Positions 9,350-39,422 of a stretch of DNA of 64,000 nucleotides are shown piece by piece; positions within the stretch are counted from its first letter, which is position 1, and each line of letters starts with the position of its first letter. Both the position numbers and the translations under genes were made by a program. The notes below the pieces were generated by a model, which was not told the DNA's origin, did not search any database, and worked only from the letters and a program-made list of their open reading frames with translations. This DNA is from a bacterium (GTDB lineage: Bacteria > Actinomycetota > Acidimicrobiia > Acidimicrobiales > CATQHL01), in assembly GCA_026708055.1 (NCBI GenBank), contig JAPOVS010000054.1:61697-125696 (forward strand), given 5' to 3'.

Positions 9350-9361
9350 GGGGGGGGGGGG
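9350..9361. repeat. G12 homopolymer tract
   Basis: Twelve consecutive G, 27 nt upstream of ATG 9388 and inside the alternative GTG-9298 reading frame (GGG codons). Confidence 0.9.
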
Positions 9362-10419: not shown

Positions 10420-10504
10420 GGGCCACGGAGCCGGTTCACAGACGCCTGCGCCTCCGCGAGGCGACAGATTGTCCACCTAGCCTCGGTGGATTATCATTTG
10501 CGAC

Positions 10505-11725
10505 ATGCTGGATTGTCCACTGCAGCGTCTCGTAGGCCCGAGCCTGCGGTCTCGCCTCTCGGTGATGCCCGCGGTGGTGGTAACCGGCGCGCGGCAGACG
10601 GGCAAGAGCACCCTGGTTCAGGAACTCATGCCCGGGCCGCGCCGCTACTTCTCCTTCGACGACTTGGATGTGGTCGACGCGGCCCGCCGCGACCCTGAGG
10701 TCCTAGTGGGGGGAAGCGAGCCGGTGACGCTCGACGAGGTGCAGCGCGAACCCGGCGTCCTGAGCGCGGTGAAGCGGGCCATCGACCGTGAGCGCACACC
10801 GGGGCGGTTCCTGCTGACGGGGTCGGCCAACCTGCTGTTGATGCGGCGCGTCTCGGAGTCGCTCGCTGGCCGGGCGAGCTATCTCCTGCTCTCTCCGATG
10901 ACCAGGCGCGAGCAGCGGGGGAGGGGACGGGGCGGCATCTGGAGTGAACTTCTGGACGCCGACGAGCGGCATTGGTCCGAGATCGTGGCGATGCAGCCTG
11001 AGGAACCCGAGGATTGGAAAGAACTCGCGGTCCGGGGTGGATTCCCAGTGCCAGCGTTGGAACTCGGGACGCCGGATCAGCGGGCGATCTGGTTCGGCGG
11101 CTACGTGACGACGTACCTGGAGCGCGATCTGCAGAACCTCTCGGCCGTCTCAGCGCTCCCGGACTTCCGGCGGTTGATGCGGGCCGTGTGCCTGCGACTG
11201 GGCGGGTTGGTCAACAAGACCGAGTTGGGGCGCGACGTCGCGCTGCCGCAGACGACGGTGCATCGCTACCTCAACCTGCTCGAGACGTCGCTGCTCCTAG
11301 TACGCGTCCCCGCCTACGCGGTCAACCGCACCAAGCGTCTCATCAAGTCGCCGAAGCTCTACTGTGCCGACATCGGCCTGGCGTTGCATCTGGCGCAGGT
11401 CGCCCCCAATGGCGCGCACTTGGAGAACCTCGTTCTGGCTGACCTGCTGGCCTGGCGCGCCACCCGCACCGATCACGCAGAGGTCTGCTACTGGCGCACC
11501 ACGGCTGGAGAAGAGGTCGACTTCGTCGTGGAGGTGGGCGGCCGCCTGCTCCCGATCGAGGTCAAGACGACGCAACGTCCCACCCTTCGCGACATCAGGC
11601 ACCTTCGGTCCTTCCGGGCGGAATACCCCGAAGCGGCGCGACCCGGCTTGCTGCTCCACACCGGCACCGCAGTCGAGTGGCTGGCCCCCGACGTCCTCGC
11701 CGCACCCTGGTGGCGGATTCTGTAG
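10505..11725 (+). CDS. AAA+ ATPase (AAA_14 + DUF4143 type)
   Basis: Walker A VTGARQTGKST. The overall architecture is typical of DUF4143 ATP-binding proteins. Confidence 0.75.
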   Translation: MLDCPLQRLVGPSLRSRLSVMPAVVVTGARQTGKSTLVQELMPGPRRYFSFDDLDVVDAARRDPEVLVGGSEPVTLDEVQREPGVLSAVKRAIDRERTPGRFLLTGSANLLLMRRVSESLAGRASYLLLSPMTRREQRGRGRGGIWSELLDADERHWSEIVAMQPEEPEDWKELAVRGGFPVPALELGTPDQRAIWFGGYVTTYLERDLQNLSAVSALPDFRRLMRAVCLRLGGLVNKTELGRDVALPQTTVHRYLNLLETSLLLVRVPAYAVNRTKRLIKSPKLYCADIGLALHLAQVAPNGAHLENLVLADLLAWRATRTDHAEVCYWRTTAGEEVDFVVEVGGRLLPIEVKTTQRPTLRDIRHLRSFRAEYPEAARPGLLLHTGTAVEWLAPDVLAAPWWRIL

Positions 11726-11802
11726 CCCGCCACCTGTGAGGTCGAGCCCCGAAGGGCCCTCCTCCCTTGGCAATTCTTGCCAACGCACTACAATCGGCGC
11801 GC

Positions 11803-12036
11803 ATGACGACGATGAACGTCTCACTTCCCGACGAACTCAAGACATTCGTCGACTCCCAAGTCAACCTTGGCCACTACGGCTCGACGAGTGAGTATGTGCG
11901 TGATCTGATCCGACGGGACCACGACCGCCGCCGGCTCCGAGCCGCGCTCCTCGAAGGAGTTCGCACCCTCGTCGTCGGCACCGCAGACGCCGCCTACTTC
12001 GAGTCACTCCGACACCAAGCCCAGGTCGAGGCCTGA
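11803..12036 (+). CDS. parD: type II antitoxin, ParD/CopG ribbon-helix-helix family
   Basis: MNVSLPDELKTFVDSQV..GHYGSTSEYVRDLIRRD is a ParD-type RHH motif. Confidence 0.8.
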   Translation: MTTMNVSLPDELKTFVDSQVNLGHYGSTSEYVRDLIRRDHDRRRLRAALLEGVRTLVVGTADAAYFESLRHQAQVEA

Positions 12037-12045
12037 ACTCAATCG

Positions 12046-12354
12046 GTGCAGGTCGACCTTCGCGCCCTCGCCGCCGCCGACATTGAGGCCGCGGTCGATC
12101 ACTACCGAGACGAAGCCGGCCCGCAGGTAGCTCTCGACTTCGTGGACGCGCTCGCGGCCGCCATCAACCATCTCCGCAACCATCCGAACAGCGGCTCCCT
12201 CCGGTTTGCGTTCGAACTCGAGATCCCGGAGTTGCGGAGTTGGCCTCTCCCGAAGTTTCCCTACCTCATCTTCTACGTGCCTGAGGACGGCCGCGTCGAC
12301 ATCTGGCGCGTCCTGCATGCCAGGCGAGACATCCCGGGCCTACCTGTCGTCTGA
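12046..12354 (+). CDS. parE: type II toxin, ParE/RelE family
   Basis: Lies 10 nt downstream of parD. Contains FPYLIFYVPEDGRVDIWRVLHARRDIP. Confidence 0.8.
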   Translation: MQVDLRALAAADIEAAVDHYRDEAGPQVALDFVDALAAAINHLRNHPNSGSLRFAFELEIPELRSWPLPKFPYLIFYVPEDGRVDIWRVLHARRDIPGLPVV

Positions 12355-12434
12355 TCCTCTCCGATGAACCGGGTGCCGACAGGGGCTGGAGGCGCATGCG
12401 CCAAGGCGTGTCCCTCAGAGTGTACGATTCGTAC

Positions 12435-12686
12435 ATGAATGAGGTGGCGGTAAGCGAGGCGCGAAACCGGCTGGCCGAGGTGATCGAGGAGACCCGCCGC
12501 TCAGGCGAGCCGATCTCGGTGACGCGGCGCGGTCGGCGGGTCGCCGTGATCCTGGACTCCGACGCATTCGACCGGCTCGTCGACAGTGCGGACGACGCCG
12601 CTGATCGCCGCGAGCTCGAGGCCGCGCGGCGCGACGACGACTACGTGCCCTGGGATGAGGTGAAGGCTGCGCTGGGACTCGAGTGA
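12435..12686 (+). CDS. type II antitoxin, Phd/YefM family
   Basis: VAVSEARNRLAEVIEETRRSGEPISVTRRGRRVAVILDSDAFDRL. Confidence 0.8.
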   Translation: MNEVAVSEARNRLAEVIEETRRSGEPISVTRRGRRVAVILDSDAFDRLVDSADDAADRRELEAARRDDDYVPWDEVKAALGLE

Positions 12687-12949
12687 GCCGCTACACCGTC
12701 GAGATCGCCCGCCGGGCGGTCAAGGCGATCGCCCAGCTTCCGCGCGTCGAGCAGCAGCGGGTTCGAGCAGCGATTGACCTGCTGGCCGACGAGCCGCGGC
12801 CTTCGGGCTGCGTCGCGCTGGCAGGCGAGGAGTCCGTGTACCGGGTACGCGTCGGCGACTACCGGATCCTCTACGAGGTCATCGACGCCCGCCTGCTGAT
12901 TCACGTCGTCCGCGTCGCCCATCGCCGCGAGGCCTACCGGCGCCGCTGA
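12683..12949 (+). CDS. type II toxin, RelE/ParE family
   Basis: GTGA overlap with the antitoxin stop. Contains YRVRVGDYRILYEVIDARLLIHVVRVAHRREAY. Confidence 0.8.
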   Translation: MSRYTVEIARRAVKAIAQLPRVEQQRVRAAIDLLADEPRPSGCVALAGEESVYRVRVGDYRILYEVIDARLLIHVVRVAHRREAYRRR

Positions 12950-13360
12950 ACCCAATCAGAAGGCCGACGACGACTCCGAGGCCGGAGGTGCAGCCGATCG
13001 CTTCGGCCCTCAGTGTCCGGCGCAGTCGCTGGACGAGAGTTCTCCACCACGGTGGGGAACGATTCTGCGGACCGCTGGACGGGTTCAAGATCTCGCTGCT
13101 CGCGTCGGCCTGGGCGACTGCGCGGAAATCCGGCGAGGCCGCGGCCAGGCATTTCAGCACCGGCCCGAACGAGCCGTGACCCGCTTTCCGGTCACCCTTG
13201 CCGATGATGTTGGAAACGCCAGTCAGCTTCCCCTGCCGTGCAGTGGGGGAGAGGTGAGGCCCGTGTCGGCGGTTCCTGCCTCGGCGGCGGTGGAGCCCGG
13301 TCCGCACCGTCGCAGCCGCCTCTCCGCGGGCGGGGTCCTGCGGGGGCGTAGAGTGGGGTT

Positions 13361-14404
13361 GTGACAGTTGTAGCGCCACCGGTCGGGGGGCCTTCGCTGC
13401 GGGACGCGGGGAGGGCGGCTGAGGTGTTGGCGGACGCGGGGGTCGCGGTGGTGTTGCTGTACGGGTCGGTGGCCCGCGGCGATCAGCACGCCGACAGCGA
13501 CATCGACTTGGTGGCGGTGCTCGACGATCTGGACTACTCCACGCGTTGGCAGCGGCGGTGCGAGCTGGAGGGGTTGGCGACCGGGGCCGCGGGGCGGCGG
13601 GTGGAGGTGTTCGTCACCGACCGCCCGGAGTGGGAGCACCGAACGAGCCGGGTGGCCACCTCGTTCGAGGCGGGCATCGCGGACGACGCCGTCGTGTTGT
13701 GCGACCGCCCGCCCGACGGCGTGAGGTGGACCAAGGAGATCGGCATGCCGGCCAGCGACTTCGACGAGGCCGTGGCCTCACTGCGCAACACGAACCAGGC
13801 CCTGGGCGAACTTCGCGACGACCTTGAGCCCGGTGGGAACGAACGGGATGAGCGCGCCGCCGGCGACGCGTTCGAGTATTCGGTTGCCGTGGCCATTCGC
13901 CTCCGGGGCGTGTGTTCCCGTTCGCAGTCGGCGTTGGAGAACGCTTTGAAGGCGCTGATCCACCTCTTCGGAGACGATGCGCCGGGGAAACTCCACGCCC
14001 TTGACGAACTGTTGGCGAAACTGCCCGATCCCCCCCAGCGGGCCGCCGCGGCCATCCTGGAGGGGCTGGACCTGCCGGTGGTCTCCGAGTGGCGCAAGCG
14101 GGGCACCTACCCGGCCGACTACCCGGAGATCAGCCTGCCGGACCTGGTGCTCGCCGCCGGTGCCTTCGCCTCGGTGGCCTGCGCCCTCAGCAGGCTGACT
14201 GCTCGGCACGTAGCCGAGACGGCCCCCGCCGCCGAGGCCGGCGCGTTGCCCGCTCCCGGTACCCCGGCCCGAGAGGCCGCGAGGGCGGCGAGGCGTTGCG
14301 CGGGCATCGAGCAGATCCTGGCGGGCTGGGACTTCACACGGGAGACGCCGACCGCGCAGATGGGCATCCCCGAGCCGCCCGAACTGCCTGATCCGCGGGG
14401 CTGA
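13361..14404 (+). CDS. fused minimal nucleotidyltransferase (MNT) + HEPN-like domain protein
   Basis: NTase motif LLYGSVARGDQHADSDIDLVAVLDD. The C-terminal helical region ENALKALIHLFGDDAPGKLHALDELLAKL resembles HEPN. Confidence 0.7.
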   Translation: MTVVAPPVGGPSLRDAGRAAEVLADAGVAVVLLYGSVARGDQHADSDIDLVAVLDDLDYSTRWQRRCELEGLATGAAGRRVEVFVTDRPEWEHRTSRVATSFEAGIADDAVVLCDRPPDGVRWTKEIGMPASDFDEAVASLRNTNQALGELRDDLEPGGNERDERAAGDAFEYSVAVAIRLRGVCSRSQSALENALKALIHLFGDDAPGKLHALDELLAKLPDPPQRAAAAILEGLDLPVVSEWRKRGTYPADYPEISLPDLVLAAGAFASVACALSRLTARHVAETAPAAEAGALPAPGTPAREAARAARRCAGIEQILAGWDFTRETPTAQMGIPEPPELPDPRG

Positions 14405-14683
14405 TCCCCGCCCCCGGAGTCGACGCCGGAACTCTGACGCCGCGGGCGGCAGCCACCTCGGCGGCGACCGTGATGGCGGCCACCCGCTCCTATCGCCGGA
14501 AATGTCCGTTATGTAAACTAGGGGGCGGAAACACACACGCCGCCGGCCGGCACGTGCGGCAGCTAGTGGCCGGTAGCCGGCGGCGGGGGGAGGCCCGGAC
14601 CCTGCCGCACCGCCCGCAGCGCCCGCGGCGTGCCGCGGCGTGCCCCTTTCTCACGCACATCGAGGCGGCCCTAGACTGACGCC

Positions 14684-15676
14684 ATGGCAGTCGTTGCGCC
14701 GGTCGCCGCGCCGACGAGGGCTGATGCTGCCGTGGCGGCGGCGGTCCTGGTCGACAAGGGGGTAGCCGAGGTGCTGCTGTTCGGGTCGGTGGCCCGCGGC
14801 GTCGCCGCCGCCGACAGCGACATCGACCTGGTGGCGATCTTCGCGGATCTGGACTACTCCGAACGCGCCGCCCGCCGCCGCGAGTTGGAGGCAGCGGCCC
14901 GGGCGGTGGTCCCCTGGCCCGTGCAGGTGCATGTGACGGATCGCCCGGAGTGGCGTGCACGCGTCGAACAGGTGTCGACGTCCTTCGAGCGCCACGCCTC
15001 CAGCGAGTCGGTTTGGGTGGCGGGCGCGACCAGCGAGGGCCCTGTGGATTGGGGCAAGGAGATGGTGTTGCCCATGAGTGACCACCAAGAAGCGCTCCGC
15101 TACTTCGATGCCAGCGTCTTGCCGTGCTTGCAGGGAGTGGCAACAGCGTGCATCCGCCCCGCCATCGAGGACGTCCCGCATGAGTCGTCGGTTCCGGTGG
15201 AAAAACGCCGGCTCAATCGGATGGTGAAACTCTGCGCCGACGCCGCTCTCGCTGCGGAGACGTCGGTGAAGACCATGGCGAAGCTCTACAGCAGCCCGAC
15301 GCCGACCGACAAGGAGCTAAAGCGCAACGGGCACACCATCGGCGAGGTCCTCCAGCGCCACGTTCCTGAGCCACACTGCGGCGAGATGCAGGCGGCGTTC
15401 GAGCGCCTCGGCGTCGATCTGGAGGAACTGTCGTCGTGGCGCAGCAAGGCGGCCTATGCCGACGACGCCGACGTGGTGCGCGCCGAAGCGGACCGTTTCG
15501 CCCCCTCCTACGCGTCCATGGCGTCAGAGATCACCGGCCTGGTCGCTGCGCACCTGCGCCGCTCGCTCGGCCGCGCCGCCGAGGCGGCCGTGACTGAACG
15601 AGACTCCCTGGCCGAGGTGATCGCAGGCCACGATGTACGTCTCGGCCTCCCGGCCCCAGTCGGTCTCGACATCTAG
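14684..15676 (+). CDS. fused minimal nucleotidyltransferase + HEPN-like domain protein (paralog of 13361-14404)
   Basis: LLFGSVARGVAAADSDIDLVAIFADLDY. Shares the VTDRPEW..R...V.TSFE block and the N-terminus M(T/A)VVAP with the upstream gene. Confidence 0.7.
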   Translation: MAVVAPVAAPTRADAAVAAAVLVDKGVAEVLLFGSVARGVAAADSDIDLVAIFADLDYSERAARRRELEAAARAVVPWPVQVHVTDRPEWRARVEQVSTSFERHASSESVWVAGATSEGPVDWGKEMVLPMSDHQEALRYFDASVLPCLQGVATACIRPAIEDVPHESSVPVEKRRLNRMVKLCADAALAAETSVKTMAKLYSSPTPTDKELKRNGHTIGEVLQRHVPEPHCGEMQAAFERLGVDLEELSSWRSKAAYADDADVVRAEADRFAPSYASMASEITGLVAAHLRRSLGRAAEAAVTERDSLAEVIAGHDVRLGLPAPVGLDI

Positions 15677-15688
15677 TGGGGCTCTGTC

Positions 15689-17458
15689 TCAACAGCCGCC
15701 GTCGGCGAACGGATTGGAGTTTCTGGGCGGCGTGAGGCTCGGATTCATGAGGAAGTCGCTCCGGCACAGGCCGCCGAACTCTCCCATCAGATTCGACATG
15801 AGTGTGAGATTCCCCACGTTGAACAGCAGATGCCAAAGCGACGCCCCGTCGGTGACGTTGTCGGTGTACCAGGCGGGCACCTCCCCGGCCAGCCCACTGC
15901 GCAGGATGCTCTTCTCCTGCTCGGTGGGCGCATCGGGAGTGCCCGCGCAGGAGGACCCCGGTCCGTAGTACGTCAAAGGGGCTTCGGGAAAACGAGGTGC
16001 ATCATCGTGTCGGCGATGACCTCCTCGCCGCCTGCCCGGCAGCCGGGATAGTTGACGGCGAAGTACAGCTGAGTCGCCCCCCAGGCCCTGTTCGGTGTTA
16101 ATGCGGTGGCCTGGTCGTACACGTGAGCCAACTCGTGGACGCCGACGTGCAGCAACTGTTGCATGGTGCGCTCGCCCAGGTCGGTACCGAGTGCTACCTG
16201 CGATGTCCGGCACTCGAACGTACCCGCATCGAAGAACCCACAACTGACACTGGCGACCCCACCGGATGCCGCCTCGAAAAGTCGGACATCGTCGCGGACG
16301 TGGTCCCAGGCGATGCGCAACCACGGGAACTCCCCCTCGTTCCGGCGCACGACATCATCCATGGCCTCGCGGAACGGACCGGGGTCGATCCTCCATTCCT
16401 CGCTGCTCCAGTCGGGCACGGTGAGAGTGGGGATCACCGTCGGCCGGCCATCCAGCCCCTTCGCTCCCGGTGCCAGGACTTCCGCAGGCGTCAAACGTTG
16501 CTCGGTGTCGCCGACGCCGAGTTGCCCGTAACGATTGTCGCCCCAGCACAGAACCTCGCGCTCCGCCGTGACTGCGCAGGCATGCGAGCCGTCCCAGAAA
16601 GTGCGGCTGCCGACGCTGATCGCGACCACATCGCTGACGTTTCGCAGCTGCTCAGCCCGCGATCTCTGCTCCCTCGTGCCGATGCCCAGTTCGCCCGCGG
16701 CGTTCGCTCCCCAGCAGGAGACCGTCCCGTCCCGGTGCAGCGCGCAGGAGCTGTAGTGGCCCGTGTCCACGGCCACCGCGTCGGTGATGCCGAGCACCGC
16801 GGTTGGCGAGAGTCCTCGTGCCGTCCGCCTTCCTGCACCGAGCAGTCCACTCCGGGAGACCACCGTGGCGCCCCCGTGGAAGTACGCCCTGTCGCTCCCC
16901 CAGCAGGAAATCCCGCCCGACCTCTGCACAGCACAAGTGAAAGTACTGCTCGGTGACACCGAGACCGCATCGTCGATACGGCGCACCTTCACCGGCGAGA
17001 GACGCTCCGACCTCGTTCCGTCGCCGAGTTGTCCGTCGTCGTTGTAACCCCAGCAGGAGGTGGAAGCTGCCCGCCGCGACCAGAGCAGCGCCGGGTTCCG
17101 GCGGAGGTACCTGCGGCGTCTCGGACGGACTCGCGGCGGGCGCAGGGACGGTCACCGTCAGGGTTGAACTCGCCAGCCAGGGCCCCACGCCGGCGGTGGC
17201 GGGGAAGAACCGGCGCGACGGCAACAGCCGCTCGCCCCACGAGCCGTCGGCGTCGCGCTGCTGCAAGCCGAACTCGACGCGACCATCATCCAGGCGCCGC
17301 GCCACGATGCGCACGTCCACCTCCGACGCCCCGCCGGCCGACTCCTCAACGCCCTCCTGCGCCGAACCAGCCGAAGGGATCGCACTGACGGTCAGCACGG
17401 CGATCAACACCGCGGCCGCCGGGCGGACGAACCGCTGAGCGATTGACGACCTCCGCAT
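15689..17458 (-). pseudogene. secreted N-module + RCC1 propeller + HExxH C-terminal domain protein, disrupted by two 1-nt frameshifts
   Basis: Three ORF pieces (16652-17458, 15973-16992, 15689-16324) together are colinear with the 23287-25890 product. The frameshifts are near 17060 (ttccacCtcctgctgg) and near 15998 (gttttccc). Confidence 0.75.
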
Positions 17459-17537
17459 GCTCAGTAACCCCCTCTCGGTGCTGCAGGCAAGGGCATCGCC
17501 TGATCGACGATTGCTTCCGTGACCTCCGCCGGCTTGC

Positions 17538-18740
17538 CTATTGACCCTTCCGGCGGTTGGTCCAGTAGTGCTTGCGGATGTGTACGGCGACGTTGCGGGG
17601 GTTGTCGCGCCAGCACTGCAGCGGGTCGTAGCCGTCGTGCGCCAGGCACATGTTGCACGAGACGCACGCGACTCCTCCGGTGCGGCCGGCCTCCAGCTTG
17701 CGCACCAGGTCCGGTTCCCTGATGAAAGGCCGTGCTATCGCCAGGAAGTCGGCGTCGCCTGAGGCGAGGATGTCCGTCATCGTCTCTGTCGTCCGCACGC
17801 CTCCCACGAGAATTACCGGCAGCCCCGACGCCTCCTTGACGGCGCGGGCGAACGGTCGGTAGTAGGCCTCGGCGCCCGCCGGCTGCCTGGCGCGCTGGAC
17901 CAGCAGGTTGCGCCACGCCTGGGCGCGGTCCACCGCCACATAGGGACGGATGTTCTCGAAGTAGCTGCGCATCACGCCGTAGGTGGTCTCGAAGCCGTCG
18001 ATGCCTCGCTCGGCCAGGCCGCGGGCCCGCGCGAGCGACTCGTCGCGCTGCAGGCCCCCTGCCACCGAGTCCTCCACGCTCAGGCGGGCGGTCACGGGGA
18101 GGTCGCTGCCGACCGCGGAACGCACCGCTTCGGCCACCTCGAAGAAGAACCGGCTGCGCCGCTCGGCGTCGCCGCCCCAGCGGTCGTCGCGGGTGTTGGC
18201 GTGCGGCGAGCAGAACTCCGAGATGAGGTAGCCGTTGCCGCCGTGGATGTGGATGCCGTCGAATCCCGCCTCCGCGGCCCGACGGGCGGCCGCCCCGAAC
18301 GCCTCCACGAGACTGCGGATCTCCCCGTCGCTCAACTCTTCGGGCTGGATGGTGTACATGGCGTTGGGCACCGGCGACGGCGCCACCGGCACAATGGCCG
18401 ACATCATCGTCTGGCTCCCGCAGTGGCCGATCTGGGCGAAGATCCGCCCGCCGGCCTCGTGGACCGCCTCGGTCGCCCGCCGGAGGGCGGGGATGACCCG
18501 ATCGTCGTGGATCCCCGTCTGGTTGGCGCTGGCCTGCCCGCGGGGGTCCACGTACATGTGCCCGGTCAGCGCCAGCCCCGCTCCCCCCTCGGCCAAGCGC
18601 CGGTACAACTCCACGAAGGAGTCGTAGATCACCCCGCTCGGCGAGGCCATCGTCTCCGAGGTGGCCCCGCGCACGATCCGGTTGGGAATATCCAAGGACC
18701 CGATCCGGCCCGGTCGGAGGTAAAGGGGCGCGGAGGTCAA
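17538..18740 (-). CDS. NADH:flavin oxidoreductase, Old Yellow Enzyme family
   Basis: OYE/2,4-dienoyl-CoA reductase-like TIM barrel (IHIHGGNGYLISEF) with a C-terminal Cys cluster ACVSCNMCLAHD. Confidence 0.8.
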   Translation of the reverse strand: MTSAPLYLRPGRIGSLDIPNRIVRGATSETMASPSGVIYDSFVELYRRLAEGGAGLALTGHMYVDPRGQASANQTGIHDDRVIPALRRATEAVHEAGGRIFAQIGHCGSQTMMSAIVPVAPSPVPNAMYTIQPEELSDGEIRSLVEAFGAAARRAAEAGFDGIHIHGGNGYLISEFCSPHANTRDDRWGGDAERRSRFFFEVAEAVRSAVGSDLPVTARLSVEDSVAGGLQRDESLARARGLAERGIDGFETTYGVMRSYFENIRPYVAVDRAQAWRNLLVQRARQPAGAEAYYRPFARAVKEASGLPVILVGGVRTTETMTDILASGDADFLAIARPFIREPDLVRKLEAGRTGGVACVSCNMCLAHDGYDPLQCWRDNPRNVAVHIRKHYWTNRRKGQ

Positions 18741-19522
18741 CGCCGTCTCAGGAGTGTGAGAAGCTTGGCATGAAGGCTGTCTATCAGTTCGTCCAGCGCC
18801 GGGCTGTTCGGGGCGATGAGCTGAGTTCGACGCATGTTCGCCCAGTCGCCGCTCAGCACATCGAGGTGGGTGTAAGTGCTGTCCAACAGGGATTCCAAGA
18901 GGTTCTCAGGCTGCGAGGCAATATCCGGAAGGTCTGAATCCGATGCCAGGAAGGAACCAAGGGCTGCCATGCAGTCGACGTCGGGTGAGTCCAATAGCCG
19001 GTCGAGGTCGTAGAGGTCGCGGGCCGCGAGCCTGCTGGGGTGGGCCAGACATGCCAGTTTGGCGGCGGTGATCGCCTCCAGGGTGATTCCCGTAACCCGG
19101 ATGTCATCGCCGAGTCCGGGATACCGAGGCTGAAGCCTCCAGAGCCGGACGCCATCCCCCGGCGGAGCGTCGGGCACAGTGATGTCGATGCGCAGGCGGT
19201 GGCGCGTGTCTGCGGGCGCTTCCCACAGAATGTCCAGACGGCCAGAGCGGTCGCGGGCCCGCAGTGACCGCCCCGAGGCTCGCGACGCCTCGTCCAGGAC
19301 GTTCTCAATGGTGTGGACAATCTCGTGGCGCTCCGCGGACGAGTGCCCCGACCAGTCGAAATCCAGGTCCTCCGAGTAGCGATAATCCATCTTCCAGCAG
19401 GTGCGCAACAGCGTGCCGCCTTTCAGGACAAGGCGATGCCGTCGGCGCTCCCGGGCCGCCAGAGCGGCGAGGAGAAAATGCTGAATGCGGTCGCGTTCGA
19501 CCGCGCACGTTGGCGAGTCCAT
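18737..19522 (-). CDS. abiEii: AbiEii/AbiGii-family nucleotidyltransferase toxin (type IV TA)
   Basis: LVLKGGTLLRTCW..YRYSEDLDFDW and RDLYDLDRLL motifs. The ATG at 19522 lies 7 nt after the upstream gene's stop. Confidence 0.75.
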   Translation of the reverse strand: MDSPTCAVERDRIQHFLLAALAARERRRHRLVLKGGTLLRTCWKMDYRYSEDLDFDWSGHSSAERHEIVHTIENVLDEASRASGRSLRARDRSGRLDILWEAPADTRHRLRIDITVPDAPPGDGVRLWRLQPRYPGLGDDIRVTGITLEAITAAKLACLAHPSRLAARDLYDLDRLLDSPDVDCMAALGSFLASDSDLPDIASQPENLLESLLDSTYTHLDVLSGDWANMRRTQLIAPNSPALDELIDSLHAKLLTLLRRR

Positions 19523-19529
19523 CCGCGGG

Positions 19530-20267
19530 CTAGGTAAGCAGTTCCGACGCCAACGCGTCAGGACCGTACGGCCACACGACTCTCCGGGCCGTGTCGTACC
19601 ACGCCCAGCGATTCGCCCGGCGGGGACGGAAGCCGCTGAGCTGGATCCATCGATCGCCGCGGCCGGCGCGGGGTACGAGTTCGGCCCACTGCGGCGGCGG
19701 GCTGCCTTCGAGCTGTCCGCGCACGCTGCTGGCCGCCAGCCCCGCCGCAACCGAAGCCACCCTGCGCAACCCGGCCCGCAGACACAGCTCCTCGGACAGC
19801 GCAGCCACCGAATCGGGGTCGAATTCTGGAGCGCCCAGCAGGACCGCATCAGCGATGTACTCCACGGCACGGGGGACCCGGTGAGGGAACTGCGCGCACT
19901 CCAACAGCGCACGCGCCGGACTCGACATCCAGGTCCGTCGGGTGATCCGCCGCGAGCCCGCCTCGACGACATGCTCCGGTTCTGTGATCACCCGAAGCCC
20001 CGTCGGCAGCGGCCCCTTCAGTACCCGCTTCGACGACGCCACGGTGGTGCCGTGGATCAGCGCGACGCCTGCCTCACACAAGGCCGTGTCGTAGGAGATT
20101 CGCCTCGATCCCGGCCCGAGCAGGTTGTCGAGTCGCTCCTCGAGCGCCGGGCTCCAATGCATGGACGACACCTGCCGGGCCGCATCCGGAGGGCCGCCCG
20201 CAACGGGCAGGGCCGCTGCCCGCATGGTAGCCAGCGGGGCGACCGAGACCGGAACGACACTCCCCAC
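19530..20267 (-). CDS. abiEi: AbiEi-family antitoxin/transcriptional regulator
   Basis: Called from its position immediately upstream of abiEii, its size, and a C-terminal region similar to AbiEi proteins. Confidence 0.6.
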   Translation of the reverse strand: MGSVVPVSVAPLATMRAAALPVAGGPPDAARQVSSMHWSPALEERLDNLLGPGSRRISYDTALCEAGVALIHGTTVASSKRVLKGPLPTGLRVITEPEHVVEAGSRRITRRTWMSSPARALLECAQFPHRVPRAVEYIADAVLLGAPEFDPDSVAALSEELCLRAGLRRVASVAAGLAASSVRGQLEGSPPPQWAELVPRAGRGDRWIQLSGFRPRRANRWAWYDTARRVVWPYGPDALASELLT

Positions 20268-20530
20268 AGTCCAAGGCTAACCCAATCCCGCCGCCGCACT
20301 CCGAACCCGGGGCACCCTGCGAGGCTCACCCCCGCGGGCAGCGACCCGTAGTCCGCGGCCAGCCACCGCGCCCGAACGGCTCGGAGGATTTTACTCTGGA
20401 CGCTCGTCCTGTGTTAGCCTGCCTGGCCGCTGCGCTGCTTCTTGCGTCTTGCAGCGCTCCCCGACACTTATGGAGGATTCGATGTTCGATAAGACGAGGC
20501 GCGCGGTGACCGCGCCTGGATCGGCGGCTG

Positions 20531-20544
20531 CCCCCCCCCCCCCC
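20531..20544. repeat. C14 homopolymer tract
   Basis: Fourteen consecutive C between an SD+ATG (20472-20484) and the signal-peptide coding region of the 20606-22999 ORF. Confidence 0.9.
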
Positions 20545-20605
20545 GTTAGCTGAACGAGCGCGGCGGCGCCGTGGGGGCGTTGCTGCTGCAATCGCGCTCG
20601 CGGCG

Positions 20606-22999
20606 TTGATCGGCGGGCTGATCGTCCTCACTTCGCCCGCGGCGGCACAGGAGCCGACGACCGCCGAGGAGGGTTCCGAGGTCCGCATCGCGGCGCGCCG
20701 ACTGGACGACGGTCGAATCGAGTTCGCGCTGCAGCAACGCCAGGGCTCATCCTGGGGACAGCGAGAGTTGCCGCGCTCGCGGTTCTTCCCCACCGACGCC
20801 GCTGCGGGCCGCTGGCTGTCCAGCACGCCGCTGGAGGTCGGCGGCACCGAGGTCCGCATCGCGGCGCGCCGACTGGACGACGGTCGAATCGAGTTCGCGC
20901 TGCAGCAACGCCAGGGCTCATCCTGGGGACAGCGAGAGTTGCCGCGCTCGCGGTTCTTCCCCACCGACGCCGCTGCGGGCCGCTGGCTGTCCAGCACGCC
21001 GCTGCGCCTCGGTGCTGCCAGCGCCGCCGACGCCCGCTTCACCGCCATCAGCATCGGCGCGCATTATTCGTGCGGGTTGCGCTCCGACGGCGCCGTCGTC
21101 TGCGTCGATGATCGCGGCTTCAAGATCGACGTGCCCGACGGGCGCTACACCGCCGTCGAGGTCCACCGCGAACTCGATGCGATGTGCGCGCTCGCCGCCG
21201 ACGGCACCGCCACCTGCTGGGACCACCTCGGCGAACAGGTCGACGCGCCCGCGCCAGAGGGGGGGTTCACCGACATCAGCCTGAGCGAGGCGGTCGGCTT
21301 GTGGTCCTTCGATGACTTCGCGTGCGGACTCCGCGCCGACGGTACCGCTACCTGCTGGGAACTCGGAGAGCACGGCCAATACCACGGCCAATACGACGTC
21401 TCTGGCGGCCCGTACACGTCCATCGACGCAACTGGAAGCTGCGGGCTGGAACGCGAGGGCGCGATCTCCTGCTGGACCCCCAGCGGGGAAGTCGACTACA
21501 CGGTCGAAGGGCCGTTCACCGAAGGGCCGTTCACGGTTCGCGCCGGCGAGGGCTGCGGGCTCCGCAGCGACGGCACGCTCGCCTGCTGGTCGCAAGCCTA
21601 CGGCGACGGCAGGCTACCGGGCGACGACACGGAACCGCCTGAAGGATCTGAAGGGCGCTTCAGCGCCGTCAGCAGCGGTGAGGGCAGTTCCTGCGGCCTA
21701 CGCCTCGACGGCACAGTCAGGTGCTGGGGCCGCTCCCGAATGGCACCCTCGGGGCGGTTCAGCGCCGTGGACGTGGGCTACCAGAACTCCTGCGGACTGC
21801 GGACCGACGGCTCAGTGGCCTGCTGGGGCTCTGACGCGGGCGGCCTCGTGAGCGACGCGCCCGAGGGCCGGTTCACCGCCATAGCCGTACACGGCGACGA
21901 GCCGAATCCTCGCGACGTCCACGGACACGGAGAGGAACACAGGGACGACCGTGCCTGCGCGCTGGCGACCAACGGCACCATCTCCTGCTGGGGCCGCATC
22001 GACAGGGGGCCATCGGACGCCGTGACCGGCCAATTCACCGAACTCGTGACTCTTGCATTCGCTAGCTGCGCTCTGAGCGTCGACGGCGAAATCGGCTGCT
22101 GGGGAACGCGCCCTGCATTATGGGCCGGGGGCGACACGCCCGTTCATGCACCTGCCGGGCGGTTCGTCGCAATCAGCATCTCAGGCGGGTTCAACGTGGA
22201 CGTTCCACGGGGGCTCGGCGGCGGATCGCGCGGGATAATTGAGATTTGCGGCGTGCGCGTCGACGGGACCATCGCCTGCGAGCACGGGTTGCCTCTGGGG
22301 CTCACCAGCGACCCGCCCGACCGCAGATTCACCGACATCAACGGCGATTGCGGCCTGCGCGCCGACGGCACCGTCACCTGCTGGAACTACGGGAGCGTGA
22401 AGTCCGAGTTCGACCTGAGCGACGTCCGGCTCACGACCATCGACGGCGACTGCGGCCTGCGCGCCGACGGCACCATCATCTGCTGGGACTCCACCGGCGT
22501 GCAGCGCGACGGGCCCGCCGAAGGGCGCTTCACCGCCATCGATGGCAGCTGCGGCCTGCGCGCCGACGGCGCCATCATCTGCTGGCGATACGACGACGAG
22601 GAGACCTACGGACCGGAAGGGCGCTTCACCGCCATCGATGGCAGCTGCGGCCTGCGCGCCGACGGCGCCATCATCTGCTGGCGATACGACGACGAGGAGA
22701 CCTACGGACCGGAAGGGCGCTTCACCGCCATCGATGGCAGCTGCGGCCTGCGCGCCGACGGCGCCATCATCTGCTGGCGATACGACGACGAGGAGACCTA
22801 CGGACCGGAAGGGCGCTTCACCGCCATAAGCGGTAGCTGCGGCCTGCGCGCCGACGGCACCGTATCCTGCTACGACCTCGAGGCGCCCGACGGGCTGTAC
22901 AGCAGCCTGACCGGTTATGGTTCCCAGGCGTGCGCCATTCGATCCGACGGGGGTGTCAGGTGCTGGGGAAGCGTCCAGGTGCTCGTCCCGGGGAGATGA
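20606..22999 (+). CDS. secreted N-module (x2) + CGLRxDG/RCC1-like repeat propeller protein
   Basis: Two EVRIAARRLDDGRIEFALQQR..WGQRELPRSRFFP..GRWLSSTPL units, then at least 20 C(G/A)LRxDG..CW repeats. The frame is open back to 20510 and encodes an RRRR-hydrophobic signal peptide with no canonical start. Confidence 0.75.
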   Translation: MIGGLIVLTSPAAAQEPTTAEEGSEVRIAARRLDDGRIEFALQQRQGSSWGQRELPRSRFFPTDAAAGRWLSSTPLEVGGTEVRIAARRLDDGRIEFALQQRQGSSWGQRELPRSRFFPTDAAAGRWLSSTPLRLGAASAADARFTAISIGAHYSCGLRSDGAVVCVDDRGFKIDVPDGRYTAVEVHRELDAMCALAADGTATCWDHLGEQVDAPAPEGGFTDISLSEAVGLWSFDDFACGLRADGTATCWELGEHGQYHGQYDVSGGPYTSIDATGSCGLEREGAISCWTPSGEVDYTVEGPFTEGPFTVRAGEGCGLRSDGTLACWSQAYGDGRLPGDDTEPPEGSEGRFSAVSSGEGSSCGLRLDGTVRCWGRSRMAPSGRFSAVDVGYQNSCGLRTDGSVACWGSDAGGLVSDAPEGRFTAIAVHGDEPNPRDVHGHGEEHRDDRACALATNGTISCWGRIDRGPSDAVTGQFTELVTLAFASCALSVDGEIGCWGTRPALWAGGDTPVHAPAGRFVAISISGGFNVDVPRGLGGGSRGIIEICGVRVDGTIACEHGLPLGLTSDPPDRRFTDINGDCGLRADGTVTCWNYGSVKSEFDLSDVRLTTIDGDCGLRADGTIICWDSTGVQRDGPAEGRFTAIDGSCGLRADGAIICWRYDDEETYGPEGRFTAIDGSCGLRADGAIICWRYDDEETYGPEGRFTAIDGSCGLRADGAIICWRYDDEETYGPEGRFTAISGSCGLRADGTVSCYDLEAPDGLYSSLTGYGSQACAIRSDGGVRCWGSVQVLVPGR
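20678..21004 (+). repeat. tandem duplication, 171-bp unit x2 (N-module)
   Basis: 20678-20833 and 20849-21004 appear identical at the DNA level. Confidence 0.85.
22523..22810 (+). repeat. perfect tandem repeat, 96-bp unit x3
   Basis: GGGCGCTTCACCGCCATCGATGGCAGCTGCGGCCTGCGCGCCGACGGCGCCATCATCTGCTGGCGATACGACGACGAGGAGACCTACGGACCGGAA starts at 22523, 22619 and 22715. Diverged units lie on both flanks. Confidence 0.9.
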
Positions 23000-23286: not shown

Positions 23287-25890
23287 TCAGCAGCCCCCGT
23301 CTCTGAACGGGTTGGACCTCCGCTGGGGCACCAGGGTCCAGTTCATGAGGAAGTCCGTGCGGCACAGGCCGCCGAACTCGCCCATCAGGTTCGCCAGCAG
23401 GGAAAGATTCGTCGGCAGGCCCCGGAACGTCCACCAGAACGCGGCGCCGTCGGTGAAGGTGCGCGTGTACCAGGCCGGCACCTCGCCCGCCAGGCCGCTG
23501 CGGAGGACCTCCAGGTCCTCCTCGGCCGGCGTCGGCGGTGTCCCCAGGCACGCCGATGCGGATCCGTAGTACGTCAAAGGAGCATCGGGCAACACCAAGT
23601 GCAGCATCGCGTCGGCGATGGCCTCCTCGCCGCCGGCCAGGCAGTCCGGGTAGTTCACCGCGAAGTACATCTGGGTCGCGCCCCACGGCCGATTCGGCGT
23701 CAAGGCCGTCGCTTGATCGTACACATGGGCCAACTCGTGGACCCCGACGTGCAGAAGCTCCTGCATGCTCCTCTCGCCCAGGCCGGTGCCGATCGCCATG
23801 CTGGACGTGTCGCAGCCGTATTCGCCCGGCGCTGTGAACCCGCAGCTCACGGTCGCGGTGCCTCCATCGGCCAGGTCGAACACTCGAACGTCGTCGCGTG
23901 CATGGTTCCAGGCGATCCGCAACCAGGGGAAGGCAGCCTCGTTGGCCGCGACGAGCTCGTCCATGGCGGCGCGGAACGGGCCGGCGTCTACCTGCGCATC
24001 CTCGTCGTTCCAATCGGGCACGCCGATGGCGGGAATCACCGTTCGGGGATCGTCGTCGGTGGCGGCCGGCGCGACTCGCGTCGGCTCCAAGCGCGCCTCG
24101 GTGTCGCCGACGCCCAGCTGCCCGTAGCGGTTGTCGCCCCAGCAGGCGACCTCGCTGGTCACCGTGAGGACACAGGCGTGCGAGCGCTGATAGGGGTTCT
24201 GACTGCTGACCGTCAGCGCCACCACGTCGCTCACCCCCCGGAGCCTGCGGGGTTCCCGCCGGTGCTCGGTCGTGCCGATCCCGACTTCGCCCGCCGGGTT
24301 CGCACCCCAGCAGGAGACGTCCCCGTCACGGTGCAACGCGCAGGAGCTCCATGCGCCCGTCGCGACGGCCACCGCATCGGTGATGCCGACGACCGGGGTG
24401 GGACGCGACAACGTCGAATCGCGCTTTCCGGCGCCCAGAGTGCCGAAGACGAACACCGTGTCGCCGGCCTCGTAGAAGGCGGCGTAGTTGGACCCCCAGC
24501 ACGAGACTGCGCCAGAGCGCCGCACGGCGCACGAGAAACTGTGCCCGGCCGACACCGAAGCGGCGTCTTCGAGTCCGCGCACACGGACGGGCGCAAGCCG
24601 CTCGGTGCTCGTGCCGTCGCCGAGTTCCCGGTGGTCGTTGTTCCCCCAGCACGACACCGCGCCGTCGGCGTGCACGGCGCACGTGTGCCAGGCGCCGGCG
24701 CCTATCGACGTCACGTCGCCCAATCCGGAGACCCGCGCGGCTCGGGGGCGGGACTCTCCGGTGCCGTCGCCGAGCTGCCCGACCTCGTTGTCGCCCCAGC
24801 AGGAGGCGCCGCCGTCGGCATGCACCGCGCAGGCGTGCCGCGCCCCGACCGAGACGTCGACGGCATCGTTCACGCCCCGCACCCTCACCGGCGACGGGCG
24901 ATCGGTCCACGTTCCGTCACCGATTCCTCCGAAGTAGTTGTCACCCCAGCACGACACGGTCCGATCACTGTGAAGGACGCACGTCGGGCCGTCCGCGGAG
25001 CCGGCGGCGGAGTCGCCGACGCTGATGGCCACGACATCGTCGAGGCCTTGCACCGGTACCGGTACGAGAGCCCGGTGCAAGGACGGATCGCCCAGCCGCA
25101 GCGACGCGCTGTTGTCGCCCCAGCAGTCCACGCCGCCGTCGGCGTTGACCGCACAAGTGTGGTAGCCGCCGGCCGCGATCAGGGCGGCGCCTCGTTCGGC
25201 CGCAATGGGCGCGTCGCCGCGTCGGGGGGCCTCGCCCGCCGAGTCGCCCCCGGCCTGCAGCCGCAGGGCCGAACTGGAAAGCCAGCGCCCCTCGGCGGCG
25301 TCGGCCGGGAAGTACCGCCGCGACGGCAACAGGCGCTCGCCCCAGTCGCTGCCGGAGCCCCGCTGCTGCAACCCGAACTCCACCCGCCCGTCGCCCAGGC
25401 GCCGAGCCACGACCCGCACCACAGTGTCCGCCGGGAGCCCTGACACCCGCAGGGCCGAACTGGAGAGCCAGCGCCCCTCGGCGGCGTCGGCCGGGAAGTA
25501 CCGCCGCGACGGCAACAGGCGCTCGCCCCAGTCGCTGCCGGAGCCCCGCTGCTGCAACCCGAACTCCACCCGCCCGTCGCCCAGGCGCCGAGCCACGACC
25601 CGCACCACAGTGTCCGCCGGGAGCCCTGACACCCGCAGGGCCGAACTGGAGAGCCAGCGCCCCTCGGCGGCGTCGGCCGGGAAGTACCGCCGCGACGGCA
25701 ACAGGCGCTCGCCCCAGTCGCTGCCGGAGCCCCGCTGCTGCAACCCGAACTCCACCCGCCCGTCGCCCAGGCGCCGAGCCACGACCCGCACCACAGCGTC
25801 CGCCTCCTGGCCGACCGCCGCCGAGGGAACTGCCGCGCCCAACACCGCGACGACCGACGCCGCGACCAGAGCCTTGCCGATCCGCCTCAC
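23287..25890 (-). CDS. secreted N-module (x3) + 7-blade RCC1 propeller + Cys-rich HExxH (zincin-like) C-terminal domain protein
   Basis: Signal peptide, three 62-aa units, seven (C/S)WG.N..GQLGDG blades, HELAH encoded at 23725-23739, and a C-terminal NPFRDGGC. Confidence 0.85.
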   Translation of the reverse strand: MRRIGKALVAASVVAVLGAAVPSAAVGQEADAVVRVVARRLGDGRVEFGLQQRGSGSDWGERLLPSRRYFPADAAEGRWLSSSALRVSGLPADTVVRVVARRLGDGRVEFGLQQRGSGSDWGERLLPSRRYFPADAAEGRWLSSSALRVSGLPADTVVRVVARRLGDGRVEFGLQQRGSGSDWGERLLPSRRYFPADAAEGRWLSSSALRLQAGGDSAGEAPRRGDAPIAAERGAALIAAGGYHTCAVNADGGVDCWGDNSASLRLGDPSLHRALVPVPVQGLDDVVAISVGDSAAGSADGPTCVLHSDRTVSCWGDNYFGGIGDGTWTDRPSPVRVRGVNDAVDVSVGARHACAVHADGGASCWGDNEVGQLGDGTGESRPRAARVSGLGDVTSIGAGAWHTCAVHADGAVSCWGNNDHRELGDGTSTERLAPVRVRGLEDAASVSAGHSFSCAVRRSGAVSCWGSNYAAFYEAGDTVFVFGTLGAGKRDSTLSRPTPVVGITDAVAVATGAWSSCALHRDGDVSCWGANPAGEVGIGTTEHRREPRRLRGVSDVVALTVSSQNPYQRSHACVLTVTSEVACWGDNRYGQLGVGDTEARLEPTRVAPAATDDDPRTVIPAIGVPDWNDEDAQVDAGPFRAAMDELVAANEAAFPWLRIAWNHARDDVRVFDLADGGTATVSCGFTAPGEYGCDTSSMAIGTGLGERSMQELLHVGVHELAHVYDQATALTPNRPWGATQMYFAVNYPDCLAGGEEAIADAMLHLVLPDAPLTYYGSASACLGTPPTPAEEDLEVLRSGLAGEVPAWYTRTFTDGAAFWWTFRGLPTNLSLLANLMGEFGGLCRTDFLMNWTLVPQRRSNPFRDGGC
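25262..25800 (-). repeat. tandem repeat, 186-bp unit x3 (N-module)
   Basis: Unit landmarks CGCAGGGCCGAACTGGA at 25262, 25448 and 25634. The copies are nearly identical at the DNA level. Confidence 0.85.
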
Positions 25891-38129: not shown

Positions 38130-39422
38130 GTGGACGGGGATGCTGTCTTGCGGACGTTTGTGGCCGGTTCGACGGGAGGGGTTCTGATGATCGCGCGGTT
38201 CGTTCGGGTCCTGTGGAGTAGGTCGGTATGGGCGGTCGGGTCGCCTCGGGGGACGAGGAGTTCTGGTCCGCAGGCAGTCTCGATCCGGCGCGGATTGTCC
38301 TTGGCGGCGGCATGCGTGTTGGTGCTGGCCGTTGTGGTGGGTTCGGTGACGGTCGCCGCAGCCGATCCGGTCGGGGCGCAGGACGGTACCGGTGAGGTAC
38401 GGATCGTGGCTCGACGCCTGACCGATGGTCGGGTGGAGTTCGGTTTGCAGGCGCGCACCGCGGGCGATTCATGGGGTGAGCGGTTGCTGCCGTCGCAGCG
38501 GTTCTTCCCGACCTCGGCGTCGGTCGGTCGCTGGTTGGTCTCCTCGCCGCTGGATGTGGCGCCCGGAGAGGTGCGCATCGTGGCGCGCCGCTTGGCGGAT
38601 GGTCGGGTGGAGTTCGGTTTGCAGGCGCGCACCGCGGGCGATTCGTGGGGTGAGCGGTTGTTGCCGTCGCGGCGGTTCTTCCCGACCTCGGCGTCGGTGG
38701 GTCGCTGGTTGGTCTCCTCGCCGCTGCGGCCGGGCGCGGCACCCGCGCAATGCCCCACCGGAACGACCGAGGAGACCTGGATCGGCGAGGCCTTCTGGCG
38801 TGCGGCGAACGTTGCGCGGGTACGCCTCGAGTTGCGCTGCGGTGCCGACCCCAACGCGGTGAAGGTCTACGACCCTTCGGACTATGACCCTCCGGCCGGA
38901 TGCGGCGACAATTGCGTCGAGCCCCCCTATGAGTTGGAGTACTCGGTTCTGCACTCGGCGGCGGTGTACAACGCGGATCCGGCGGTGATCCAGGTTCTAC
39001 TGGACGCCGGCGCCAACATCTGGGCGGATTCAGTCCTTGGGTCGCCTCTGCATCTTGCGGCCGCACACGGCAATCTGGTGACGGTTCGTGCGCTGCTGGA
39101 CGCCAGCGCCGATTTCGAGGAGCCGCGCGGCTTCTACCACTGGATGCCTCTGCACAGCGCGGCGGCAAGCAGTCACGATCCGGCGGTGATCCAGGTGCTG
39201 CTGGACGCCGGCGCAAATATCGAAGCGAGGGGCGTCGGCAGCTGGACGCCGCTGCACTGGGCGGCCTCATACAACCAGAATCCGGCGGTGATCCAGGTGC
39301 TGCTGGACGCCGGCGCTGACCTCGAGGCGAGGGACGCTGAAAACTGGACGCCTCTTGATCTGGCGCGGCAAAGAGGCGGCGCCGCAACCATCCGGGTGCT
39401 TGAGGAGGCGGCCGGTTCCTGA
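38130..39422 (+). CDS. secreted N-module (x2) + ankyrin-repeat protein
   Basis: Hydrophobic signal, two EVRIVARRL.DGRVEFGLQARTAGDSWGERLLPS.RFFPTSASVGRWLVSSPL units, then about 4-5 ankyrin repeats (SPLHLAAAHGN...LLDAGA...TPLHWAA). The start is uncertain (38130 or 38187). Confidence 0.8.
   Translation: MDGDAVLRTFVAGSTGGVLMIARFVRVLWSRSVWAVGSPRGTRSSGPQAVSIRRGLSLAAACVLVLAVVVGSVTVAAADPVGAQDGTGEVRIVARRLTDGRVEFGLQARTAGDSWGERLLPSQRFFPTSASVGRWLVSSPLDVAPGEVRIVARRLADGRVEFGLQARTAGDSWGERLLPSRRFFPTSASVGRWLVSSPLRPGAAPAQCPTGTTEETWIGEAFWRAANVARVRLELRCGADPNAVKVYDPSDYDPPAGCGDNCVEPPYELEYSVLHSAAVYNADPAVIQVLLDAGANIWADSVLGSPLHLAAAHGNLVTVRALLDASADFEEPRGFYHWMPLHSAAASSHDPAVIQVLLDAGANIEARGVGSWTPLHWAASYNQNPAVIQVLLDAGADLEARDAENWTPLDLARQRGGAATIRVLEEAAGS
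38394..38726 (+). repeat. tandem repeat, 174-bp unit x2 (N-module)
   Basis: 38394-38560 and 38568-38726 are highly similar at the DNA level. Confidence 0.8.

Follow-up and report, generated by a model that had tools for sequence, protein, structure and literature searches.

A C14 tract ahead of the signal peptide of an RCC1-repeat protein: a probable phase-variable locus in a sponge-associated Acidimicrobiia

Known homopolymer switches and the layout of the C14 locus

Among the described systems closest to the locus presented here are the genic phase-variation tracts of Neisseria, which measure 9–21 nt when made of G and 9–16 nt when made of C (PMC5953494). The secreted or surface-related genes pilC1/pilC2, pglA, lgtA, lgtG and nalP each contain a G/C homopolymer of approximately 9–20 nt in their 5' coding part, and a change of ±1 in its length toggles translation between ON and OFF. 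Jonsson et al. 1991 reportedly placed the pilC tract in the part of the gene coding for the signal peptide. We describe a run of exactly 14 C (C14; positions 20531–20544, plus strand), located 5' of a gene encoding a secreted RCC1-repeat protein (hereafter the C14 gene), in a 64,000-nt stretch of an uncultured sponge-associated Acidimicrobiia metagenome-assembled genome (MAG; assembly GCA_026708055.1, contig JAPOVS010000054.1, positions 61,697 to 125,696). This whole stretch is referred to as the window. The tract falls inside the Neisseria range and is proposed as a slipped-strand switch, which makes the C14 gene a probable phase-variable locus in an unusual host and an unusual protein family. 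Indeed, the host is a Gram-positive-type Acidimicrobiia, and the product an RCC1-like propeller protein whose N-terminal domain is uncharacterised. Moreover, ON and OFF alleles and switching rates have been demonstrated experimentally in Neisseria, whereas only OFF-length consensus alleles (C14 and C12) were retrieved at the C14 locus.

Two other systems offer useful comparisons. In Listeria monocytogenes inlA, a frameshift in a 5' poly(A) tract leads to a very short peptide, and reversion to the original frame is approximately 1000 times as frequent as point mutation (Orsi et al. 2010, PMC2831843). In inlA as in the C14 gene, a secreted surface protein is encoded and the homopolymer follows the start by a few codons; however, the inlA tract is of the A7 type, in a low-GC organism, and its OFF and ON alleles are found side by side in strain collections. 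Within the Actinomycetota, homopolymer phase variation is documented in Mycobacterium tuberculosis (PMC10334774), with variants in the 7C tract of glpK, ESX-1-associated variants and variants in the frd operon (PMC10334774; bioRxiv 10.1101/717272; PMC11898584). The phylum and the reversible frameshifts in coding G/C homopolymers are common to both cases, but M. tuberculosis tracts are approximately 7–9 nt long and mostly situated inside housekeeping or regulatory genes, whereas the C14 tract is twice that length, lies in a signal peptide and is thereby closer to what is seen in mucosal pathogens. The literature searched yielded no account of phase variation in symbionts of sponges.

All the elements of the locus are on the plus strand. 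A Shine–Dalgarno (SD)-like GGAGGA (20472–20477) stands 4 nt 5' of ATG 20482, with another in-frame ATG at 20470. The reading frame that begins at ATG 20482 comprises 23 codons (20482–20553), crosses the tract (local sequence ...ATGGAGGATTCGATGTTCGATAAGACGAGGCGCGCGGTGACCGCGCCTGGATCGGCGGCTG-C14-GTTAGCTGA...), reads MFDKTRRAVTAPGSAAAPPPPVS-stop and closes on TGA 20551–20553. It is offset by one nucleotide from the main open reading frame (ORF), which is bounded upstream by TGA 20507–20509, with no start reachable beyond it, and remains open from 20510 to 22999. Before TTG 20606, where the annotated ORF begins, this main frame contains no ATG, GTG or TTG, and its only conceivable starts are CTG 20516, CTG 20528 and ATC 20591.

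Just 3' of the tract (20546–20647), the main frame encodes the remainder of a signal peptide, described as Sec-type: LAERARRRRGG (n-region), VAAAIALAALIGGLIVLTS (h-region), PAAA, then QE. TTG 20606 sits in the middle of the h-region, and initiation at this codon would leave MIGGLIVLTSPAAAQE, that is, half of the h-region and no n-region. Since a start at this TTG would halve the signal peptide, a start 5' of the tract is required. With one C fewer or two more (C13 or C16), and likewise with C10, the ATG 20482 frame becomes fused with PPPPLAERARRRRGGVAAAIALAALIGGLIVLTSPAAAQE; in this ON state, the first 21 codons of the ATG frame (MFDKTRRAVTAPGSAAAPPPP) would form the beginning of the signal-peptide n-region. 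This architecture had been noticed in a reading of the DNA made without database searches (the sequence-only reading), and each of its coordinates was confirmed here, as were the absence of an ATG or GTG before a TTG that cuts the signal peptide (homologs and paralogs have it in full) and the joining of ATG, tract and signal peptide into one ORF by C13 or C16. For the SD-ATG frame, its statement that the assembled gene is OFF is correct.

Both the tract and the start site are rare features. C/G runs of 12 nt or more occur at two loci of the window (four overlapping matches) versus 0.08 expected from dinucleotide-preserving shuffles, i.e. approximately 50-fold above expectation, and a zero-order estimate predicts 0.04 runs of 14 nt or more per 64 kb. 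In shuffled sequence, GGAGG-N3-8-ATG is encountered approximately 14 times per 128 kb, or approximately 0.007 times per given 60-nt stretch of one strand, and the SD-ATG of the C14 gene is unlikely to be there by chance. A promoter scan yielded no plus-strand sigma-70 promoter for the C14 gene; its sole match (20417–20388, minus strand) probably serves the divergent AbiE operon.

Tract length and reading frame among assemblies

The tract was compared in seven assemblies, of which six display C14: the window itself (NCBI MAG, OXG55), two from ROBB21 (L005/L097, ENA, SAMN13943205; L002, SAMN13943206), one from SHAF22 (L004/L098, ENA, SAMEA7723695, with a GCT>GCG single-nucleotide polymorphism (SNP) touching the tract), one from Logan (L099, SRR10996905) and a k141 contig from ENA (L100, ERZ27276915). 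The seventh, GCA_026706585.1 (L001), displays C12. A further locus (L003, SHAF22, SAMEA7723698) was left out of these counts because of a 100-N scaffold gap over the region. At least four samples, processed with several pipelines, stand behind the six C14 assemblies, and the seven assemblies amount to approximately three independent lineages.

Based on their flanks, these loci fall into two clades approximately 1.4% apart: clade A gathers the window, L005, L004, L099 and L100 (mutual identity 99.9–100%), and clade B gathers L001, L002 and L003 (mutual identity approx. 99.5%). C14 occurs in both. Within clade B, L001 (C12) and L002 (C14) are only 0.34% apart (99.66% flank identity), with five mismatches over 2 kb besides the 2-nt tract gap, and each of the two lengths is one step from the in-frame C13. 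Comparison of the same locus in related MAGs, a check put forward in the sequence-only reading, thus reveals a difference in tract length between close strains, in a small sample (six C14, one C12). Two other hallmarks of phase-variable genes are also observed: the tract exceeds the length at which homopolymers are considered hypermutable (approx. 8–9 nt or more), and it stands between the start codon (SD-ATG, frame 1) and the body of the ORF (frame 2).

Beyond the tract, the reading frame is preserved. Over approximately 2.4 kb, no stop codon or frameshifting indel was detected in six alleles, which are distinguished by five small indels with a net in-frame effect (3, 6, 9, 15 and 18 nt), one compensated +1/−1 stretch (TPS>DHL, which may derive by conversion from a CWDHLGE repeat within the gene) and three whole-unit repeat changes (171-nt and 96-nt units). 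Under neutrality, the probability that every one of five small indels has a length divisible by three is approximately 0.004. As the frame has been kept while the tract puts both clades out of frame, it would therefore be read at least intermittently. Between the ATG and the tract, only two SNPs separate the alleles, GAT>GAC in L001 and GCT>GCG in L004, both synonymous in the ATG frame. Taken together, the C12/C14 split between near-identical strains and the conservation of the frame favour what appears to be a live gene, dependent on tract length.

The GAT>GAC substitution of L001 has another consequence. It changes a third-frame TAA (window 20490–20492) to CAA and, combined with C12, reopens the main frame to a TTG lacking an SD (20442–20444, plus strand; L001 4003), which shares the frame of the whole signal peptide and ORF in L001 only. 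From this TTG, L001 4003–4110 (window-equivalent 20442–20550) would read (M)RLAALPDTYGGFDVRQDEARGDRAWIGGCPPPPLAERARRRR..., a start passed over by gene callers. Alternative-frame starts at the lic loci of Haemophilus influenzae provide a parallel. L001 may represent a weak ON allele expressed from an SD-less TTG, or the SNP may equally be a coincidence.

Phase variation is the model that best fits these sequence comparisons, the switching itself being proposed, and we see about an even chance that this is a real slipped-strand contingency locus with OFF as its consensus state, possibly a leaky one. In such a locus, translation would initiate at the SD-ATG (20472–20484), and tract length would decide whether translation extends into the signal peptide and the 800-codon body. 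C13, C16 or C10 would lead to the full pre-protein, and C14 (as in the window) or C12 to a peptide of approximately 21–23 aa and no secreted product. Tract length would change by slipped-strand mispairing at replication, and a clonal population would keep yielding ON and OFF cells; the sampled sponge populations would then be composed of an OFF majority lying one step from ON (C14 = +1, C12 = −1). A low amount of product could possibly arise from OFF alleles if ribosomes slip by +1 or −1 on the CCC run. To our knowledge, Actinomycetota are generally devoid of MutS/MutL, and their NucS pathway leaves indels uncorrected; high instability would accordingly be expected of a run of 14 nt. Switching, an ON subpopulation and a function in contacts with the host or with phages are what we infer. 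Should the tract indeed switch, a sponge-associated, uncultured lineage of Acidimicrobiia would possess a contingency locus, and the large secreted RCC1-repeat family could be a variable face shown to the host or to phages, as suggested by the several paralogs per 64 kb, the variable repeat numbers and an excess of nonsynonymous differences.

Several observations weigh against a switch. None of the seven assemblies contains an in-frame allele (C13, C16 or C10), so that ON and OFF lengths were not both retrieved in nature, and a collection of 15 billion proteins, homologs and cluster members of the product included, contains neither the 838-aa full-length product nor a protein starting with MFDKTRR and continuing into the family. 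C14 is present in two clades approximately 1.4% apart, which is steadier than one might expect of a free-running switch and mildly favours obligate recoding or a young pseudogene. The ratio of nonsynonymous to synonymous differences (pN/pS) of the C14 ORF reaches 1.1–3.3 between alleles, versus 0.11–0.37 for neighbouring genes, a pattern that gene decay would produce as well. Finally, the in-frame indels are often located in or beside internal repeats and could stem from gene conversion. The phase-variation switch put forward in the sequence-only reading is thus upheld in its anatomy and in the C12/C14 difference between strains, and left short by the missing in-frame allele and by the neutral-looking substitutions.

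Searches for the locus elsewhere were negative: an exact flank pattern with a variable gap gave 0 matches against JGI metagenome contigs, and a protein-guided scan of GTDB representative genomes returned no relatives. The same scan of JGI metagenomes retrieved only relatives of at most 30% identity, none of them with long homopolymers. Neither JGI metagenomes nor GTDB representatives yielded orthologs outside the bacterial species concerned.

Alternatives to a switch

A recent inactivation is the first alternative to consider. Slippage at a stretch coding for poly-Pro (poly-C) would have produced a young pseudogene, now drifting within a redundant paralog family, with no adaptive switching. 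Such a scenario is consistent with the fact that all seven assemblies are out of frame with the SD-ATG, with the presence of at least four other intact paralogs within the same 64 kb and with the lack, in the C14 gene, of the NPFRDGGC module of neighbouring paralogs. Substitutions point in the same direction: the window and L001 differ by 19 nonsynonymous and 5 synonymous changes for a neutral expectation of approximately 18:6 (pN/pS approx. 1), and the ratio is higher still between the window and L002, versus 0.11 for the adjacent OYE reductase and 0.26–0.37 for AbiEi/AbiEii. This pattern would fit either relaxed constraint or diversifying selection combined with intragenic recombination. However, further disabling mutations were not observed, despite the five small indels, the compensated pair and the three repeat changes accumulated by the six alleles, and indels that are all in frame argue against a dead pseudogene, even if a pN/pS of 1 or more is still compatible with relaxed constraint. 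Moreover, both clades are out of frame, and a dead gene would have to span their whole divergence; the two leader SNPs are synonymous; and the L001 stop-loss SNP, which reopens the frame to a TTG, resembles rescue rather than decay. We therefore regard inactivation as unlikely, while giving it some weight.

Obligate recoding is a second possibility. The protein would be made only through +1 (C14) or −1 (C12) slippage of peptidyl-tRNA-Pro on CCC, or through RNA polymerase slippage, and expression would be constitutively low or dependent on elongation factor P (EF-P) or tRNA modification. Every assembly is indeed out of frame by exactly one step, the ORF frame is preserved, and tRNA-Pro can re-pair perfectly in any frame on a CCC run. 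There are also precedents, since CCC_N is a known +1 shift site and low-level compensatory frameshifting through ‘savior’ indels has been reviewed for the G7 run of herpes simplex virus (HSV) thymidine kinase (TK) (PMC5009743). Like the C14 locus, HSV TK G7, CCC_UGA +1 sites and endosymbiont poly(A) slippage all associate an out-of-frame run with some full-length product (PMC5009743; PMC3017870).

The C14 locus differs from these cases: no stimulatory element (structure, internal SD, adjacent slow or stop codon) was found, and the alleles need shifts in opposite directions (+1 in six, −1 in one). Indeed, the fold of 20465–20620 has a z-score of −0.06, the hairpin at 20561–20612 is weak (z = −2.06) and begins 17 nt past the tract, and the 0-frame stop of the C14 allele is located two codons past the tract, not adjacent to the shift site. 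As for polymerase slippage, insertions of this type were detected transcriptome-wide in Escherichia coli and Buchnera at A/T runs only, G/C runs not being slippage-prone (PMC5574713). Overall, recoding seems improbable to us. A more specific version, in which the tract is held one nucleotide off and the RCC1-repeat protein is made only upon CCC/poly-proline slippage, reading out EF-P or tRNA-Pro status, is slightly more doubtful; if true, it would mean that recoding, instead of a DNA-level switch, controls a protein with which a sponge symbiont interacts with its host.

A technical origin of the tract length would imply a true C13 to which sequencing on Illumina instruments or an assembler added a base; the sequence-only reading had cautioned that poly-G/poly-C runs are classic sequencing and assembly artefacts. 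Homopolymers of such length are error-prone, the data are apparently all short-read assemblies, one assembly gives C12, and the L003 scaffold has its gap precisely over this region. Yet six assemblies agree on C14, with four or more samples and several pipelines behind them, including Logan and MEGAHIT-style k141 contigs, which largely removes this concern, and stutter in sequencing or polymerase chain reaction tends towards contraction, not towards a reproducible +1. Other homopolymers (G12, G8 and C7) are unchanged between assemblies. Indeed, L016 and the window are 100% identical over 9161 nt, G12 and G8 included, and outside repeats L001 and the window are separated by no other indels than a single nucleotide at 17058, the 2 nt of the tract and a 6-nt deletion that keeps the frame. 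It is very unlikely that a true C13 was misread as C14 six times, and we consider an artefact highly improbable. A chimeric junction at the tract, also envisaged at first, was rejected, as flanks are syntenic at all loci, with the same gene order at each (OYE, AbiEii, AbiEi, C14 gene, convergent RCC1 paralogs).

Lastly, a gene simply ON from a main-frame start (CTG 20516, CTG 20528 or ATC 20591), the ATG mini-ORF being an unrelated leader, is barely credible: the CTGs do lie within the open main frame and CTG 20528 would give MPPPPPLAERARRRR... with a full h-region, but both CTGs lack an SD, bacteria very rarely initiate translation at CTG, both public gene calls for the locus leave these starts unused, a strong SD-ATG 40–50 nt upstream would be left without explanation, and CTG 20528 was rejected as a start, the L004 SNP turning this codon into CGG.

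The encoded protein, its family and its neighbourhood

The annotated ORF (20606–22999, plus strand, TTG start) encodes 797 aa and is identical to MCY4103948.1 (OXG55_11935, NCBI MAG). All public gene calls (MCY4103948.1, MCY3807565.1 and ENA) begin at the internal TTG (MIGGLIVL...), with the frameshift unflagged, and therefore describe a protein without its signal peptide; in practice, users of these annotations of the C14 gene are given a protein lacking this targeting element. Downstream of the signal peptide are two tandem copies of a domain of approximately 57 aa (20676–21004, plus strand; 171-nt period, 100% identical copies, a single copy in L002), followed by an RCC1-like (RCC1_2) repeat region presumed to form a beta-propeller (21030–22996, plus strand, 5' boundary approximate). 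In a Pfam search, the product of the C14 gene matched RCC1_2 (PF13540) with 81.9 bits for a cut-off of 22, and the paralogs matched PF00415 and PF25390 as well, above cut-offs. Within the RCC1 region, 96-nt tandem repeats (22329–22858) vary in copy number between assemblies.

The domain of approximately 57 aa, recognizable by its landmarks VRIAARRLDDGRIEFALQQR...WGQRELPRSRFFP...GRWLSS, had no sequence match in Pfam, NCBIfam or PDB. Its AlphaFold2 model is all-beta (pLDDT, the predicted local distance difference test score, of 80.6) and had no significant Foldseek match in PDB. Ten copies (VRIVARRLxDGRVEFGLQQR...WGERxLPxRRFFP...GRWLxSS) were counted in the window, located 5' of RCC1 repeats in secreted proteins, at 17165–17314(−), 20681–20998(+), 25270–25791(−), 27827–28159(−) and 38397–38720(+). 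The domain appears to be an uncharacterised family, widespread in Acidimicrobiia homologs.

Further members of the protein family are encoded at 23287–25890(−), 25994–28339(−), 29507–31495(−), 40645–43584(−) and approximately 38130–39422(+). All window paralogs possess a complete N-terminal signal peptide, and the layout of a signal peptide followed by AxxQE is found in them as well as in distant homologs (P0005, P0019, P0042, P0060), which, with others, display a signal peptide, cleavage near QE and then the 57-aa domain. The paralogs at 23287–25890(−), 25994–28339(−) and 29507–31495(−) have in common a C-terminal module of approximately 80 aa ending in ...EFGGLC...NPFRDGGC-stop, the one that the C14 gene lacks.

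Tandem repeats inside these genes also vary: among near-identical strains, copy numbers differ at 20676–21004 and 22329–22858, and also at 25254–25804, the 171-nt unit being present in 2 or 1 copies and the 96-nt unit in 3, 2 or 1 copies. These differences could reflect either real variation of surface proteins or the collapse of repeats in short-read assemblies. Contigs L099 and L100 end at the 171-nt repeat.

ThyX (455–2062) is 90–94% identical to that of sponge-type Acidimicrobiia/Acidimicrobiales MAGs. Adjoining the C14 gene, the region at approximately 10500–20200 is a dense block of toxin–antitoxin or defence-type genes (AAA_14/DUF4143 ATPase, ParD, Phd/YefM-ParE, two NTP_transf_2/Polbeta and AbiEi-AbiEii) and looks like a variable genomic island. 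An apparent length difference of AbiEii (217 versus 261 aa) turned out to stem from gene calling and not from a mutation.

The only other long homopolymer of the window is a G12 run at 9350–9361, located 26 nt 5' of ATG 9388, the start of a gene whose 343-aa product resembles a signal peptide at its N-terminus and matched nothing in Pfam or NCBIfam. Two possible GTG starts 5' of the run (9298 and 9307) share its frame, and an identical G12 is found in L016, which comes from a different sample. It could be a second switch acting on a secreted protein, either of the promoter/untranslated-region type or of the coding type.

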